Positions 16,862 to 56,524 of a stretch of 64,000 nucleotides of DNA are shown here, piece by piece. The DNA is from Escherichia phage vB_EcoM_JE01, in sequence record PQ471460.1. One strand, given 5' to 3'. The notes under the pieces were generated by a model. It made no database searches, was not told where the DNA came from, and worked only from the letters and a program-made list of their open reading frames with translations. How positions within the stretch are numbered: the first letter of the stretch is position 1; the number at the start of each line of letters is the position of its first letter. A program made the translations under genes and the position numbers.

Positions 16862-17227
16862 ATGTATATTGGTAGAAAATATGAACTTGTTCCAAGACTT
16901 ATTGATACATTTATTAATTATCGCCCGCGTTCTAATTCATCAATAGTTAAAATTATTCAAGAAAATGGCGGATGGTTTGAAGTTAAAGAAGCTTTCTTTG
17001 CTGATGGATTTAGAGTAATAAAACACATTGAATGCGCTAATGGAAAGCATTTTTACTTCAACGTCTGTGAAGACGAATTTCATTGTTTCCGCGAGTATAA
17101 AGAACTGACTTCTGAAGAAGATGAAGTCGAAGACAAGATTTCTGGCGTAACAAAAATTCACTGCATTGTAGACGAAAACAATGTAGATGAAATCATTGAA
17201 CTTTTGCGAAAAACTTTCAAAAAGTAG
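16862..17227 (+). CDS. hypothetical protein (frd.2-like position)
   Basis: 121 aa ORF. Confidence 0.5.
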   Translation: MYIGRKYELVPRLIDTFINYRPRSNSSIVKIIQENGGWFEVKEAFFADGFRVIKHIECANGKHFYFNVCEDEFHCFREYKELTSEEDEVEDKISGVTKIHCIVDENNVDEIIELLRKTFKK

Positions 17228-17256
17228 TTTACAGAAGGGTAGTAGTGTGATACTAT
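17227..17256 (+). promoter_or_regulatory. early-type promoter with inverted repeat bracketing the -10
   Basis: GTTTAC…TACTAT; GGGTA/TACCC inverted repeat around -10. Confidence 0.5.
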
Positions 17257-24734: not shown

Positions 24735-26322
<1,588 letters not shown>

Positions 26323-26325
26323 GCT

Positions 26326-26379
26326 GTTTACAAGTCCCTCGTGTTGTGTTATAGTAGACTTACTGACATAACATGAGGA
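26326..26379 (+). promoter_or_regulatory. early promoter plus leader cassette, copy A (upstream of alc)
   Basis: GTTTACAAGTCCCTCGTGTTGTGTTATAGTAGACTTACTGACATAACATGAGGA; 52/54 identical to 42019-42072. Confidence 0.6.
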
Positions 26380-26383
26380 CTTT

Positions 26384-26890
26384 ATGATGGATTTACAGCT
26401 TATTACTACTGAAATGGTCGTTGAAGCATATGGTGATACTACAGATGGGATTTCTGTATTTAAAGGAAATCGTCGAGTTGGATATATCACCGATCTTAAG
26501 AAAGATTTAGCTAAGCAAGTCAAGCGGAAAACGACCATTAAAGAATATCGAAATCGTCGTCTTGAGCAAGCCCGTGATATGCTTCCTGATGCGGTTGAGG
26601 AGATGAAAGTCTTTTTAGAAAATCAGCTTGCGAAATATGATTGTGATGTGTTCATTAATCAGACTCAACCTAATGTTCATATCAATAATTGTAAATGCTA
26701 CATCATCGTTAATCCTTTGACGGGAAAACATCGTCTTGGAATTAGTAATCCAAATCGTAGTGCATCAGATATGGCAGAAGATGTTGAGGCATGCTTTAAA
26801 ATTTCTAAATCTCCGGCTGAACATCATATTTTAATTAACGGTCTTTCTCAAGACGATATTGTAGAGGTTATTAAAACTTTATGCAATTAA
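26384..26890 (+). CDS. alc: Alc-like protein (host transcription shutoff), by size and synteny
   Basis: 168 aa ORF between rnlA and the spanin pair. Confidence 0.7.
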   Translation: MMDLQLITTEMVVEAYGDTTDGISVFKGNRRVGYITDLKKDLAKQVKRKTTIKEYRNRRLEQARDMLPDAVEEMKVFLENQLAKYDCDVFINQTQPNVHINNCKCYIIVNPLTGKHRLGISNPNRSASDMAEDVEACFKISKSPAEHHILINGLSQDDIVEVIKTLCN

Positions 26891-32830: not shown

Positions 32831-33007
32831 ATGGCAAAACAAGCTAAAGCAAAGAAAGCAGTTGAAAAGAAAGTTGGTGATTCTAAACGCGCTGGTTACA
32901 AGCGTGGGTCGAACTCTCGTATCAATCAAACTGTTGAGAAGATCATGCGCCGAGCACGTGCGGTTCTTCGAGATGATGCTTCTCGTTTTGGTAAGCAGAA
33001 AGCATAA
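32831..33007 (+). CDS. small basic hypothetical protein (30.9-like position)
   Basis: MAKQAKAKKAVEKKVGDSKRAGYKRG…; 58 aa from internal Met of the ORF. Confidence 0.45.
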   Translation: MAKQAKAKKAVEKKVGDSKRAGYKRGSNSRINQTVEKIMRRARAVLRDDASRFGKQKA

Positions 33008-33011
33008 GTTG

Positions 33012-33039
33012 AGGACTCCTTCGGGAGTCCTTTTTTATT
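33012..33039 (+). terminator. rho-independent terminator
   Basis: GGACTCC-TTCG-GGAGTCC followed by TTTTTTATTTT. Confidence 0.8.
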
Positions 33040-33060
33040 TTCCAAAGATTGCACAAAGTT

Positions 33061-33117: not shown

Positions 33118-33450
33118 ATGAAAACGATTAATCTGAACGCTGCGGTTAAAACTAAATGCTTCAATGGTAAATATGATGAAACTATGTGGTTCTTAATGGC
33201 AGTTGAAGGTGATATTATTGAAGTAGAAACAACAGAAGGTATGGGAACAGATTTCACCTTTACAATTCAAGTTCATAATTTCTTTACTGGTTGGATTTAT
33301 GAATTGAATACAGTAATCGTTGGAAAAATTGAACAAAATGAATTAGGTGAATGGTATTATGTTACAGCTCGCCAACGTGCAGAACGCTTAATTGAGAAGA
33401 TGAAAAAAGTTGGCAAACTTGACATGCAGCACTGGAAAGTAGTAAAATAA
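33118..33450 (+). CDS. hypothetical protein
   Basis: 110 aa ORF with own promoter and SD. Confidence 0.5.
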   Translation: MKTINLNAAVKTKCFNGKYDETMWFLMAVEGDIIEVETTEGMGTDFTFTIQVHNFFTGWIYELNTVIVGKIEQNELGEWYYVTARQRAERLIEKMKKVGKLDMQHWKVVK

Positions 33451-33452
33451 TT

Positions 33453-33492
33453 GTTTACTTTGGTACAGGATATGATATTATATACCTGTACC
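33453..33492 (+). promoter_or_regulatory. early-type promoter with perfect 8-bp inverted repeat bracketing the -10
   Basis: GTTTAC…TATTAT; GGTACAGG / CCTGTACC. Confidence 0.5.
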
Positions 33493-37812: not shown

Positions 37813-37834
37813 AGGCCTTCGGGCCTTTAATTTT
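37811..37834 (+). terminator. rho-independent terminator
   Basis: AAAGGCC-TTCG-GGCCTTT followed by AATTTT. Confidence 0.65.
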
Positions 37835-37842
37835 ATAAATAG
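37835..37842 (+). promoter_or_regulatory. late promoter TATAAATA upstream of first Alt-like gene
   Basis: exact TATAAATA about 20 nt upstream of ATG 37862. Confidence 0.55.
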
Positions 37843-37861: not shown

Positions 37862-39958
37862 ATGATGGAACTTATTACAGAATTATTTGACGAAGATACT
37901 ACTCTTCCGATTACAAACTTAAATCCAAAGAAGAAAATACCGCAAATTTTTTCAGTTCATGTTGATGACGCAATTGAACAACCAGGCTTTCGTTTATGTA
38001 CCTATACATCTGGAGGTGATACTAATCGCGATTTAAAAATGGGCGATAAAATGATGCATATTGTTCCTTTTACATTAACTGCTAAAGGTTCAATTGCTAA
38101 ATTAAAAGGTCTCGGTCCAAGCCCAATTAATTACATCAATTCAGTTTTTACTGTTGCAATGCAGACGATGCGTCAGTATAAAATTGATGCCTGTATGCTC
38201 CGTATTCTTAAGTCTAAAACTGCTGGTCAAGCTCGACAAATTCAAGTTATTGCTGATAGACTTATCCGTAGTCGTTCAGGTGGCAGATACGTCCTTCTTA
38301 AGGAACTCTGGGATTATGATAAAAAGTATGCATATATTCTTATACATCGCAAAAATGTATCACTAGAAGACATTCCAGGAGTTCCTGAAATTAGTACCGA
38401 GCTCTTTACTAAAGTTGAATCGAAAGTCGGCGATGTTTATATCAATAAAGATACTGGAGCTCAAGTAACTAAAAATGAGGCAATTGCTGCTTCTATTGCA
38501 CAAGAAAATGATAAACGTTCTGACCAAGCTGTAATCGTTAAAGTTAAAATTTCCCGTAGAGCAATTGCACAAAGTCAGTCATTGGAATCTTCTAGATTTG
38601 AAAGTGAATTATTCCAGAAATATGAATCTACCGCAGCTAATTTCAATAAACCTGCTACAGCTCCTTTAATTCCCGAAGCAGAAGAAATGAAGCTTGGAAT
38701 TAATTCATTAGCTTCTAAAACTAAGGCAGCAAAAATTATTGCCGAAGGAACCGCAGATGAACTTCACTATGACTATAAATTCTTTTCAAAAAGTGAGGTT
38801 AATGAAGTTTCTGAAAAAATTAAAGATGTAATTCTCAATGCGATTAAAAATGAACCAACCACTTCAATAAAATGTTTAGAGAAATACGCAGCAGCTGTTA
38901 ATCAATTCTTTGAAGAATATAAAGATAATTGGCTTGATAAACATAATAAAACCCGTAAAGGACAGCCAGATGAAGTCTGGGAAGAAATAACTAAAAATTC
39001 CTGGAACGCAGCAAAAACTAAATTCCTCAAACGAATGATTTATAGCTTTTCTGGAATTGGTGCAGGTCCAATGATTGATATTACTATTGCCCGTGATGGT
39101 TCTAAATATACTCCATCGCAAAAGCGCGGCATTAGAGAGTATTGTGGATCAGGATATACTGACATCAATAATCTTCTTTTAGGCCGCTACAATCCAGAAC
39201 GATATGATGTAATGAGTGAAAAAGAAATTGAATCTGCGATAAATAATTTAGATTCAGCTTTTGAAAATGGTGACCGTATACCAGAAGGCATTACAGTTTA
39301 TCGTGCTCAAAGTATGACTGCTCCTATATACGAAGCGCTAGTTAAAAATAAAGTGTTCTATTTCAGAAATTTTGTATCTACTTCTTTAACTCCTATCATT
39401 TTTGGACGTTTTGGAATTACACATGCTGGCATCGGTCTTTTAGAACCAGAAGCTCGTAATGAATTAACAGTTGATAAAAATGAAGAAGGAATAACTATTA
39501 ATCCAAACGAAATAAGAGCGTATAAAGAAAATCCTGAATACGTTAAAGTTCAAATAGGATGGGCAATTGATGGAGCTCATAAAGTTAATGTTGTATATCC
39601 AGGAAGTCTCGGAATAGCAACAGAAGCTGAAGTTATTCTACCACGCGGATTGATGGTCAAAGTTAATAAAATAACTGATGCTTCTAATAATGACGGAACA
39701 ACATCTAATAATACAAAACTCATTCAAGCTGAAGTTATGACTACGGAAGAACTCACTGAATCGGTAATCTATGATGGAGACCATTTAATGGAAACTGGTG
39801 AAGTAGTTGCAATGACAGATGATATTGAAATAGAAGACAGAGTTGACTTTGCATCATTTGTTTCATCAAATGTTAAACAGAAAGCAGAATCATCTCTTGG
39901 AATTATTGCGTCTTGCATAGATATTACAAACATGCCTTACAAGTTCGTTCAAGGATAA
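37862..39958 (+). CDS. Alt-family ADP-ribosyltransferase paralog 1 (head-packaged)
   Basis: 698 aa; N-terminus MELITELFD…; C-terminal R…STS…E(AEVILPRG) ART signature. Confidence 0.8.
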   Translation: MMELITELFDEDTTLPITNLNPKKKIPQIFSVHVDDAIEQPGFRLCTYTSGGDTNRDLKMGDKMMHIVPFTLTAKGSIAKLKGLGPSPINYINSVFTVAMQTMRQYKIDACMLRILKSKTAGQARQIQVIADRLIRSRSGGRYVLLKELWDYDKKYAYILIHRKNVSLEDIPGVPEISTELFTKVESKVGDVYINKDTGAQVTKNEAIAASIAQENDKRSDQAVIVKVKISRRAIAQSQSLESSRFESELFQKYESTAANFNKPATAPLIPEAEEMKLGINSLASKTKAAKIIAEGTADELHYDYKFFSKSEVNEVSEKIKDVILNAIKNEPTTSIKCLEKYAAAVNQFFEEYKDNWLDKHNKTRKGQPDEVWEEITKNSWNAAKTKFLKRMIYSFSGIGAGPMIDITIARDGSKYTPSQKRGIREYCGSGYTDINNLLLGRYNPERYDVMSEKEIESAINNLDSAFENGDRIPEGITVYRAQSMTAPIYEALVKNKVFYFRNFVSTSLTPIIFGRFGITHAGIGLLEPEARNELTVDKNEEGITINPNEIRAYKENPEYVKVQIGWAIDGAHKVNVVYPGSLGIATEAEVILPRGLMVKVNKITDASNNDGTTSNNTKLIQAEVMTTEELTESVIYDGDHLMETGEVVAMTDDIEIEDRVDFASFVSSNVKQKAESSLGIIASCIDITNMPYKFVQG

Positions 39959-39961
39959 ATC

Positions 39962-42019
39962 ATGGAACTTATTACAGAATTATTTGACGGCGCTTCGGCG
40001 CCGGTTGTTAACTTAAATCCTAAGCATAAAATACCTCAAATTTTTGCTATTCAAGCAGGTGAAGAAAGCGTGCTTCCTGGATTTAGATTTTGTACATACA
40101 CCTCTGGCGGTGATACAAACAAAAACGTTAAGCCAGGCGATAAAATGATGCATATCGTAATGATAGGTGTTAATGAGAAACTATCATTAGTTAAACTTAA
40201 AAACTTGGGTGGAAATCCAATTGGTGTTATTAATGCAGTTTTTGATACTGCTCTTCAAACAATGAAACAGTATAAAATTGACGCATGCCTATTCCGCGTA
40301 CTAAAGAGTAAAACAAACGGTGCAGCTCGTCAAATGCAAGTTATTGCCGACCGTTTAGTACGTACTAAAGGAGCAGGTCGATATGTTCTTTTAAAGGAAA
40401 TCTGGGACTATGATAAGAAATATGCATATATTATGGTTTATCGTAAAAATGCCAATTTAGAAGACATTCCAGGTGTACCTCCTATTTCAACTGAGTTATT
40501 CACAAAGGTTGAATCAAAGGTTGGTGATGTTTATGTAGATGTTAAAACAGGTAATGCTGTTCCTAAAGCTGTTGCTGTTGCTGCTTCTATTGCTTTAGAA
40601 AATGATAAGCGCACGGATCAAGCTGTAATTCAAAAAACTAAAATTAGTCGTCGATTAGCAGCACAAGCTCAATATTCTACTGTCGATGCTTCACTTCAGG
40701 GTGATAGCTTCGCTGCTAAGAAATACCAAGAGTTTGAATCTAAAGTTCCGGTATATAAAGCAGAAGGACCAATGAACTCCGGCGTTATTCAGGTTGGTTC
40801 AAACTTCAGCAAAGGAGCTATCGGTGGTATGAGAAGTGCTTCTCGTTTTAAATCTAATGATTATGAACTAGAAAGCTTCCGAAATCATATTGCATTGGCT
40901 CATGCACGTTTACGTGATCCATCTATCAAGTTACAGAGCGATATAACATATCAAGGTTCTCAAGAATATTTAAAGAATAAAGAATTTTTTGATTATAAAA
41001 CTGATAAAATTTTAAGCGATCTTGCTGACATTAATATTTCTAATAGCTTTGATGTTATTAAGAAAATCGTCAATGATTTAGTTAAAGGTTCTAAAGCCAC
41101 GCCAGATGAAAAGGTAGCTATTGTTCAATTTGTCATGAATGGCGTGTATAAATTGATTAATGAGTCTGCTTCTCAAGCGTATGAATATGCAAGTACTGAA
41201 GTACCCCCAAAAGGATTAACTCAGGCTGAGTCTGATGTAATTGAAGATTATTGTGCAGATTCATATGTTGAAATGAACTCGTTCCTTTTAGGTAAACCGG
41301 ATTCTACCCGTGAAGAATATATGGAACGAGCTATTAAACACATCGAGACAATGGATTCTGCCTTTGCCAAAGGATCAGTTCTTCCTCCAGGAACTACACT
41401 TTACCGTGGGCAAGAAGTTACTTTTAAAACTTTACGTCATAATATTGAAAATAAAATGTTCTATTTCAAGAACTTCGTATCCACATCGCTTAAACCAAAT
41501 ATCTTCGGTGAGTATGGTAAAAACTATATGGCTCTAGATGATTCCAGTACAGTATTTTCTGGTGAAGGAGAAGGTTCAGTTGATGCTGAAGATTTAATGC
41601 ATATGGGTAGTCACTCTGCTTATGCGAATGAAGATGCTGAAACTAGCGTAGGTATGGTAATTAAAGGGGCTGAGCGAATTAAAGTTATCGTTCCAGGTCA
41701 TTTATCAGGATTTCCATCAGAAGCTGAAGTTATTTTACCACGTGGAATTTTGCTGAAGATTAATAAAGTGAGTACGTACATGATGAAAGAAACTGCTTAT
41801 AACAAGTATCTAATCGAAGGCACAATCGTTCCTCCTTCTGAACAATTAGAAGAATCGGTATATGATGGCGACCACCTGATGGAAACTGGTGAAGTTCGTC
41901 CAATGACTGGGTTTAATCAATTCCTTGTAGAAGAATCAAAAGAAGAGGAAAACGAAGTTTCTCAAATCTTGGCTTCTTTGATTAACATCAACGGAATGTC
42001 TAAAAAGTTCAAAATGTAG
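39962..42019 (+). CDS. alt: Alt-family ADP-ribosyltransferase paralog 2
   Basis: 685 aa; N-terminus MELITELFDGASAPVVNLNPKHKIPQIF…; R-S-E motif region (LYRGQ…FVSTSL…SEAEVILPRG). Confidence 0.8.
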   Translation: MELITELFDGASAPVVNLNPKHKIPQIFAIQAGEESVLPGFRFCTYTSGGDTNKNVKPGDKMMHIVMIGVNEKLSLVKLKNLGGNPIGVINAVFDTALQTMKQYKIDACLFRVLKSKTNGAARQMQVIADRLVRTKGAGRYVLLKEIWDYDKKYAYIMVYRKNANLEDIPGVPPISTELFTKVESKVGDVYVDVKTGNAVPKAVAVAASIALENDKRTDQAVIQKTKISRRLAAQAQYSTVDASLQGDSFAAKKYQEFESKVPVYKAEGPMNSGVIQVGSNFSKGAIGGMRSASRFKSNDYELESFRNHIALAHARLRDPSIKLQSDITYQGSQEYLKNKEFFDYKTDKILSDLADINISNSFDVIKKIVNDLVKGSKATPDEKVAIVQFVMNGVYKLINESASQAYEYASTEVPPKGLTQAESDVIEDYCADSYVEMNSFLLGKPDSTREEYMERAIKHIETMDSAFAKGSVLPPGTTLYRGQEVTFKTLRHNIENKMFYFKNFVSTSLKPNIFGEYGKNYMALDDSSTVFSGEGEGSVDAEDLMHMGSHSAYANEDAETSVGMVIKGAERIKVIVPGHLSGFPSEAEVILPRGILLKINKVSTYMMKETAYNKYLIEGTIVPPSEQLEESVYDGDHLMETGEVRPMTGFNQFLVEESKEEENEVSQILASLININGMSKKFKM

Positions 42020-42072
42020 TTTACAAGTCCCTCGTGTTGTGTTATAGTAATCTTACTGACATAACATGAGGA
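42019..42072 (+). promoter_or_regulatory. early promoter plus leader cassette, copy B
   Basis: 52/54 identical to 26326-26379. Confidence 0.6.
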
Positions 42073-42079
42073 ACACAAA

Positions 42080-42370
42080 ATGAAATCTTCTTTGCGCTTT
42101 TTAGGTCAAGAACTTGTAGTTGAAGGCGTTATTCCTGCTGATAACGCCTTTAATGAAGCAGTTTATGATGAATTTATCAAAATTTTTGGAACAGATAAAA
42201 AGTTCGGAATTTTTCCTTCTGAAAATTTTTCAAAGCCAGAGCAGACTGAAAGTATTTTCCAAGGTGTAGTAACAGGTAAATTTGAGTCAGAAGCTCCAGT
42301 AAAAATTGAAGTTTATATTGAAGACAGTTTAGTTGCTTCAGTTTCTGCTTTTATTTCATTCCGTAAATAA
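42080..42370 (+). CDS. hypothetical protein
   Basis: 96 aa ORF driven by cassette copy B. Confidence 0.5.
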   Translation: MKSSLRFLGQELVVEGVIPADNAFNEAVYDEFIKIFGTDKKFGIFPSENFSKPEQTESIFQGVVTGKFESEAPVKIEVYIEDSLVASVSAFISFRK

Positions 42371-42376
42371 AAATAT

Positions 42377-42394
42377 GGGGACCTTTCGGTCCCC
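42377..42394. terminator. bidirectional hairpin terminator between convergent genes
   Basis: GGGGACC-TTTC-GGTCCCC. Confidence 0.65.
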
Positions 42395-42398
42395 ATTG

Positions 42399-56506: not shown

Positions 56507-56524
56507 AGGGACCTTTCGGTCCCT
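56507..56524. terminator. bidirectional hairpin terminator between rnlB and gene 24
   Basis: AGGGACC-TTTC-GGTCCCT followed by TTGTTTTATT. Confidence 0.65.

Follow-up and report, generated by a model that had tools for sequence, protein, structure and literature searches.

A predicted early promoter set in a hairpin and duplicated between the alc and alt.-3 loci of T4-like phages

A 54-bp promoter and leader unit in front of two genes

Why does a T4-like phage carry the same 54 bp of promoter and leader in front of two genes that lie 15.7 kb apart, and what might the shared stretch do there? We addressed this question in 64,000 nucleotides of Escherichia phage vB_EcoM_JE01 (PQ471460.1; this whole stretch is referred to as the window), a Tequatrovirus (T4-like) segment in which the + strand is the direction of early transcription. 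A preliminary description of this DNA had proposed that a 54-bp unit is present twice, that it comprises an early promoter, a leader, and a Shine-Dalgarno sequence placed before alc and before a 96-aa ORF, and that it is a mobile cassette of the kind that shuffles genes. The repeat itself is real: the 54-mer is found at 26326-26379 with 0 mismatches (copy A) and at 42019-42072 with 2 mismatches (copy B; GA>AT at unit positions 32-33), i.e., the copies are identical at 52 of 54 positions, and none of 100 dinucleotide shuffles matched the 54-mer. Moreover, the pair is the sole long near-identical non-coding direct repeat within the window, the remaining long repeats being tandem alt paralogs. 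The identity has exact edges, on the left at the G of GTTTAC and on the right at the A of GAGGA. Each cassette is packed between an upstream stop codon and the next start codon, and the interval between the copies carries conserved genes, such as ligase, gene 31, cd, and pseT. Both cassette regions are matched by ~500 T4-like phage records at 90-99% identity. The features relevant to the two loci are as follows.

25162-26322, + strand: rnlA (gene 63, RNA ligase 1), upstream of copy A
26326-26379, + strand: cassette copy A, 54 bp, between the rnlA stop codon (26320-26322) and the alc start
26327-26355, + strand: copy A promoter, with -35 TTTACA (26327-26332), a 17-bp spacer, TG (26347-26348), and -10 TATAGT (26350-26355)
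26384-26890, + strand: alc (inhibitor of host transcription; Pfam PF17527), served by copy A; its start is ATGATG at 26384/26387
39962-42019, + strand: second alt paralog, immediately before copy B; full-length form of T4 alt.-2
42019-42072, + strand: cassette copy B, 54 bp, overlapping the TAG stop codon (42017-42019) of the second alt paralog and preceding alt.-3
42020-42048, + strand: copy B promoter, with -35 TTTACA (42020-42025), TG (42040-42041), and -10 TATAGT (42043-42048)
42080-42370, + strand: alt.-3 homolog, 96 aa, function unknown (Pfam DUF5498; homology to T4 alt.-3), served by copy B

The layout at both copies is that of a sigma-70-type early promoter, the same as in the 34 candidate early promoters (GTTTAC, N17, -10) listed in the complete relative ES21 (MN508617) that served as our comparison set. 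The copy A promoter has 10 of 12 consensus matches with the TG present, and in each copy the Shine-Dalgarno sequence GAGGA lies ~20 nt past the -10; transcription is predicted to start (+1) near 26362 at copy A and near 42055 at copy B. Upstream of the -35 the DNA is coding; as for an UP-like region, the A/T content is high at copy A (AAAAATTATAAAAAATTTAT) and lower at copy B, and the 'TTTTCACAAAACT'-like block present at many other early promoters is absent upstream of both copies. No TATAAATA late-promoter motif was found inside either cassette. Alc has been described as an immediate-early product (review, PMC2988021); the literature searched, with the T4 promoter tables and the PST PeSL figure outside its scope, contained no mention of these two promoters and no T4 start-site dataset. 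Judged by these motifs, the description of a duplicated early promoter, leader, and Shine-Dalgarno unit before alc and the 96-aa ORF appears to be correct.

Two further observations concern the surroundings of the cassettes. Elsewhere in the window, 33419-33481 (+ strand) holds tandem promoter-like sites 35 nt apart (TTGACA N18 TAAAAT followed by GTTTACT N16 TATTAT), the second with an inverted repeat, GGTACAGG...CCTGTACC, across its -10. Upstream of copy B, two full-length alt paralogs lie in tandem at 37862-39958 and 39962-42019 with a repeat spacing of ~2097 bp; in T4 (L001, 5566-5951) the second alt is internally deleted, leaving the fragments alt.-1 and alt.-2, and its last codons, AAAAAGTTCAAAATGTAG, and cassette B are intact despite the deletion, while RB69 and VR7 have a single alt gene.

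Our working hypothesis, which we regard as fairly probable, is that an early promoter located inside a ribosome-site-masking hairpin was copied from alc to alt.-3 by ectopic recombination and that the two copies are still exchanging sequence. The repeat, its boundaries, the promoter motifs, the hairpin with its conservation, and the population pattern were computed; the start site, the masking, and the direction and mechanism of the copying are what we infer.

A hairpin that encloses the -10 element

Folding of the sense RNA returned a hairpin of 20-22 bp between spacer and leader at both copies.

26332-26382, + strand: copy A hairpin in the sense RNA, 5' arm 26332-26350, 3' arm 26365-26382
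42027-42074, + strand: copy B hairpin, 5' arm 42027-42043, 3' arm 42058-42074, containing the Shine-Dalgarno sequence at 42068-42072

At copy A, the 5' arm is the promoter spacer and the 3' arm is the leader including the Shine-Dalgarno sequence GAGGA (26375-26379), and an inner 4-bp stem with its loop (26353-26364) spans the -10 and the predicted +1. The predicted energies are -24.4 kcal/mol (z -4.5) for copy A and -23.0 kcal/mol (z -5.3) for copy B, and in neither case did any of 200 shuffles fold as stably. The predicted structures pair 3-4 of the 4 Shine-Dalgarno nucleotides with the spacer. An earlier reading of a short TGTTAT/ATAACA stem was superseded by this much longer helix from spacer to Shine-Dalgarno sequence. 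RNA made from the cassette's own promoter, with the predicted +1 in the loop, does not contain the 5' arm of the hairpin, and RNA folded from the predicted +1 is unstructured (-1.8 kcal/mol, z -0.8 at copy A; -1.0 kcal/mol, z +0.8 at copy B). At copy A the sense strand folds at -24.4 and the antisense strand at -15.4 kcal/mol; in Tequatrovirus generally, three G-U pairs give the sense strand an advantage of 6-10 kcal/mol over the antisense strand. Some copies of B carry C11T, C15T, and G16A, which give a bulge-free stem together with B's own downstream GGAAC (-25.7 kcal/mol), and these variants hint that the structure is maintained at copy B too.

Neither hairpin is followed by a T-run or U-tract and neither was called terminator-like in the terminator scan; an intrinsic terminator was rejected on both grounds. 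Similarly, neither cassette had a match in Rfam, even at E <= 1. Apart from the cassettes, the Rhizobiales sRNA Atu_C8 of Rfam matched weakly at 32963-33046 (+ strand; 31.4 bits, E = 0.006, the gathering score being 50). A terminator-like hairpin at 33011-33032 lies within the matched stretch, and the match is most likely due to chance or driven by that hairpin. A core, GGGACCTTTCGGTCCC, is common to the terminator-like hairpin at 42375-42396 and a site at 56508-56523, 14 kb away (repeat family D8).

Conservation of the hairpin was examined at two depths. Among 21 distinct cassette sequences from Tequatrovirus, 97.7% of cells are paired, variation falls mostly on loop or wobble positions, and a single compensatory series (CG>UG>UA) is present; at so shallow a depth statistical support is weak, with 51 of 500 shuffles doing as well. 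For a comparison across genera, we fetched the alc and alt.-3 loci from other Tevenvirinae. In most of the lineages sampled, the alc promoter has the same hairpin architecture built from different sequence (z -3.5 to -7), with stems such as TCTCCTCAT/ATGAGGAGA, CATTTGGTT/AACCAAATG, CGTTTAGTT/AACCAAACG, CATTTTGTT/AACAAAATG, and CATTTCGTT/AACGAAATG, and in most lineages the 3' arm terminates on the Shine-Dalgarno sequence. RNAalifold, applied to 16 alc cassettes in a plain MAFFT alignment, recovered the spacer-to-Shine-Dalgarno helix, with compensatory changes in 9 of 10 pairs and 89% of cells paired. None of 500 shuffles reached the percentage paired, the compensatory counts, or the covariation score; the count of further pair types was attained by 22 of the 500. 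Slid controls of the same alignment were 31-54% paired. We conclude that the helix at alc is kept across genera through compensatory changes. The hairpin is absent from alc in RB69-like phages, and in a few lineages it stops short of the Shine-Dalgarno sequence. At alt.-3, promoters outside Tequatrovirus had no significant structure (z -1.5 to +0.4). As a separate observation, alc in VR7-type phages (L035, VR7, 17011-17244; L047, L048, L071) is immediately preceded by a partial duplicate of itself, and the alc-side promoter there has the variant -35 GTGTACAAG and a leader-internal hairpin in place of the spacer-to-Shine-Dalgarno hairpin.

Based on this structure, we suggest the following arrangement. 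The spacer would form the 5' arm of the hairpin and the leader with the Shine-Dalgarno sequence its 3' arm, and the -10 would lie in the loop together with the start site. Because read-through RNA carries both arms, the ribosome site of alc or alt.-3 would be masked in it; its source would be rnlA in the case of copy A and the late-transcribed alt genes in the case of copy B. A transcript from the cassette's own promoter would begin in the loop, would not contain the 5' arm, and would be translatable. The outcome would be that translation of alc and alt.-3 is tied to the early burst from their own promoter. Two features bear on the supply of read-through RNA at copy B.

37834-37841, + strand: late-promoter consensus TATAAATA, 20 nt before the first alt gene (motif match only)
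42375-42396, both strands: terminator-like hairpin between alt.-3 and gene 54

Alt is among the proteins packaged in the capsid and hence is made late. There is no terminator-like site before alt.-3, the first one downstream of copy B being that at 42375-42396, and because a late motif precedes alt and no terminator precedes alt.-3, late alt RNA should run through copy B. Because the motif scan revealed no late promoter near rnlA, the need for gating is less obvious at alc than at alt.-3. Conversely, because other genera manage without a hairpin at alt.-3, the hairpin of copy B could be a passenger of the conversion that brought it there.

The most serious rival to our working hypothesis accepts the same duplication history and denies the masking: the stem-loop would act in attenuation or termination, in RNA processing or stability, or as an inverted repeat in the DNA that affects promoter opening or early-promoter shut-off. 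We take such a role to be possible. A PeSL (promoter-early stem-loop) hairpin is reported to have cut downstream reporter expression about as much as a strong terminator did (PMC2839356), and early promoters as a class are structured across the -10: in ES21, the 62 nt from the -35 fold at a mean of -12.9 kcal/mol as against -7.9 (sd 0.36) with spacers shuffled. This folding energy is the only clearly non-random property of the ES21 promoters, and many of their stems end before the Shine-Dalgarno sequence. The Shine-Dalgarno sequence is paired to the spacer in 12 of 30 ES21 promoters as against 10.3 (sd 2.2) with shuffled and 11.2 (sd 1.8) with swapped spacers; because this crude pairing count is no higher than in the controls, we do not claim masking as a general trait of early promoters. 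In addition, because alc stems outside Tequatrovirus are almost purely Watson-Crick, a role of the RNA and a role at the DNA level cannot be distinguished there, which leaves room for the latter. Against a role other than masking stand the lack of a U-tract or terminator-like call at either hairpin, the termination of the alc 3' arm on the Shine-Dalgarno sequence in most lineages, and the three G-U pairs in Tequatrovirus that favor the sense RNA. As an observation on the class, many ES21 promoters (e.g., those on the reverse strand at 157145, 156516, 40781, and 5799) have near-perfect inverted repeats flanking the -10, e.g., AGATAGGGTA...TACCCTATCT.

Origin of the second copy and exchange between the copies

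To place the duplication in time, we compared the loci across genera. Homologs of alc were found in 1137 records and of alt.-3 in 836 records, in several genera. In the four other genera whose promoters were legible in full, alc has one early promoter and alt.-3 another, located as in Tequatrovirus; these promoters likewise abut the upstream stop codon, and the similarity between the alc and alt.-3 promoters is only at background level. Because the hairpin at alt.-3 exists only in Tequatrovirus, we suggest that the Tequatrovirus cassette is of the alc type and probably overwrote an older, resident alt.-3 promoter. Sequence similarity to the outgroups is ambiguous as to which copy was the donor, and it is from the presence and absence of the hairpin that we infer the direction alc to alt.-3. 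According to our working hypothesis, then, the hairpin promoter would be ancestral at alc, would have replaced an unstructured alt.-3 promoter in the Tequatrovirus lineage by ectopic homologous recombination, and copies A and B would have continued to exchange sequence afterwards. Both promoters already had the motifs that delimit the replaced tract, GTTTACA on the left and ACATGAGGA on the right, and recombination was probably seeded there.

The two loci have exchanged sequence in another lineage as well, if a block in a VR5-like phage (IMG/VR contig IMGVR_UViG_2706795356; L057, L080) is read correctly. In this phage, the leaders of alc and alt.-3 have a block of 32 identical nt (CCTTACACAAACATGAGGAGAACATTATGAA), ~30 nt ahead of the respective start codon, and the block is absent from the alc leader of the sister JS98-like phages. 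Going by the sequence, this is an independent second exchange between the same two loci, in the opposite direction.

For exchange within Tequatrovirus, we compared both copies from 22 genomes, a non-random sample partly picked for divergence. There are 0 fixed differences between A and B, with 10 polymorphic sites in A and 13 in B. At eight sites A and B have the same two alleles, and three whole haplotypes, as well as all three states of positions 32-33, are common to the two loci; the variant T19C occurs in one sampled genome only, whose two copies both carry it. The distance between A and B is 2.18 within and 2.47 between genomes, and diversity is 2.00 within A and 2.46 within B. This pattern is that expected of ectopic gene conversion and points to recombination as what keeps the copies alike, with homogenization visible more at the level of the population than within single genomes. 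The overlap of polymorphic sites has P = 1e-6 when all 54 sites are counted and loses most of its force if only ~14 sites are free to vary.

The same data can be read without exchange, as selection on both copies for a shared property (strength, timing, or a binding factor) with the shared variants being recurrent mutations. We consider this unlikely. Because only 14 of 54 cassette positions vary and these are mostly loop or wobble positions, parallel hits are plausible, and the association of variants within genomes is weak (permutation P = 0.04). However, per-site diversity in the cassette is 0.037-0.046, and because this is as high as in the flanks the constraint is not extreme; the absence of fixed differences, the three whole haplotypes at both loci, and T19C in both copies of its single genome also weigh against independent selection. 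Likewise, the other genera do not keep their two promoters alike, and the 32-nt transfer in the VR5-like phage is a separate event.

Less likely still, to the point of being improbable, is insertion of a mobile PeSL cassette at the second site, e.g., via a mini-circle, with shuffling of the adjoining genes, as the preliminary description had proposed. The order of stop codon, early promoter, stem-loop, Shine-Dalgarno sequence, and ATG matches the PeSL layout (PMC2839356, PMC4122927), and the copy number of alt varies upstream of copy B. Yet in the genera examined the two genes and the positions of their promoters are conserved, each genome has two copies only, the 15.7-kb interval consists of conserved genes, and no change in gene content goes with the cassette. 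The variability of downstream genes that a shuffling cassette would predict was not seen: alc and alt.-3 are conserved well beyond Tequatrovirus, and only the upstream alt copy number varies. Thus, of the preliminary interpretation we retain a duplicated unit that extends beyond the promoter consensus and the fit to the PeSL idea, given a strong stem-loop that the preliminary description had not noticed in the unit, but because both genes and both promoter positions are conserved, the mobile, gene-shuffling part is not borne out and the interpretation is only partly supported. What the evidence fits is that one resident promoter was overwritten by the other and that gene conversion then went on, rather than that a mobile unit was inserted.

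Finally, that the likeness is ordinary conservation of the T4 early-promoter consensus is hardly credible: such promoters have GTTTAC, TGn, the -10, and GAGG in common and their sub-families are alike past the -10, but in an all-against-all comparison of the 34 ES21 promoters the alc/alt.-3 pair is the top pair with 52/54 identical positions, ~5 sd above the mean of the 561 pairs (26.8/54, sd 4.9), its 15-nt, non-consensus spacer is identical at 15/15 positions, and no third copy was found in any of 499 genomes. The last result comes from blastn against 50,697 phage records, in which the 54-mer matched 499 Tequatrovirus records, T4 included, at 997 places, i.e., two per genome, with no third copy in the 499 matching records and nothing outside Tequatrovirus. 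The 54 bp are consequently not shared by many T4 early promoters, the observation that, according to the preliminary description, would have turned the repeat into ordinary promoter conservation. In T4, copies A and B differ at 1 position, and an exact-pattern scan of IMG/VR for the 54-mer returned 9 loci only. The next-best ES21 pairs reach 49, 46, and 45 of 54 because early-promoter sub-families share sequence from the -10 into the leader. We conclude that the alc/alt.-3 pair is a true duplicate and yet, because families of similar promoter-leader units abound in these genomes, marks the extreme end of a continuum of such units. The three next-best pairs are on the reverse strand of ES21 (35062/161263, 10016/63441, and 8577/62927 for 49, 46, and 45 identical positions, respectively) and have unrelated ORFs downstream; in addition, a block, TGGTACTATACAACTATCAAC, running from the -10 into the transcript, is common to several ES21 promoters.

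Implications and relation to known systems

If the working hypothesis is true, the two loci would offer a natural example of a promoter-plus-leader module that was copied onto the promoter of another gene and then homogenized by recombination. They would also give support at the population level to the idea of recombination between PeSL elements, which so far comes from genome comparisons and mini-circle PCR, and would represent an early-promoter version of T4 ribosome-site masking in read-through RNA, conserved at alc. A broader reading is that regulatory modules rather than genes move, with a portable switch that allows translation from the own promoter only being pasted over resident promoters by ectopic gene conversion. 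Its cases would be alt.-3 in Tequatrovirus and, in part, alc in the VR5-like phage; we put it forward tentatively and hold it to be rather doubtful. If it were true, stem-loops that straddle the -10 might separate immediate-early from read-through translation genome-wide or, alternatively, might contribute to the still unexplained shut-off of early promoters.

Among known systems, the PeSL elements of T4-like phages (Arbiol et al. 2010, PMC2839356; Comeau et al. 2014, PMC4122927) are an obvious comparison. The PeSL promoter of the T4/PST type is TTTACW N17 TAYWAT, and stem-loops that overlap the -10 are one described subclass (PMC2839356, PMC4122927). Like these elements, the alc/alt.-3 unit is a compact intergenic unit of stop codon, sigma-70-like early promoter, stem-loop, Shine-Dalgarno sequence, and start codon, and both the layout and a stable stem-loop are present at both copies; because of this strong stem-loop, the unit fits the PeSL idea. 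It is also repeated in the genome, and recombination between copies, proposed for PeSL, is suggested here by the population signature and the VR5-like transfer. Unlike PeSL elements, it exists in two copies only, 15.7 kb apart and around conserved genes, and the downstream genes are the conserved alc and alt.-3 rather than ORFans in a hyperplastic, variable setting. The unit abuts coding sequence and has no AT-rich intergenic stretch of its own, its stem is neither of the Gn/Cn type nor of the upstream AGNA/TCNT type, and its 3' arm includes the Shine-Dalgarno sequence, with no U-tract and no intrinsic-terminator signature. Moreover, its own signature is one of gene conversion and promoter replacement, not of gene gain or loss.

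A second comparison is with T4 e, soc, 49, and I-TevI, for which ribosome-site-masking hairpins with an internal promoter are established (PMC3014915); alc and alt.-3 are not among the examples in that review. As in those genes, the Shine-Dalgarno sequence is predicted to lie in a helix whose 5' strand is upstream of an internal start site, and long transcripts would be silent and promoter-proximal ones translatable. The difference is that the internal promoter is an early sigma-70 promoter and not the late TATAAATA, and because it is early, translation is predicted to be confined to the early rather than the late phase.

That dispersed repeats evolve in concert through ectopic gene conversion is a general phenomenon, seen for example in duplicated bacterial genes. 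The two cassettes resemble such repeats in having no fixed differences, polymorphisms and whole haplotypes that cross between loci, and a divergence between copies about equal to allelic diversity; they differ from the usual cases in that the tract is non-coding and only ~54 bp long and resides in a lytic phage with very active recombination. We conclude that the alc/alt.-3 pair belongs to kinds already known, the PeSL elements and the ribosome-site-masking hairpins, and is not a new kind of system.
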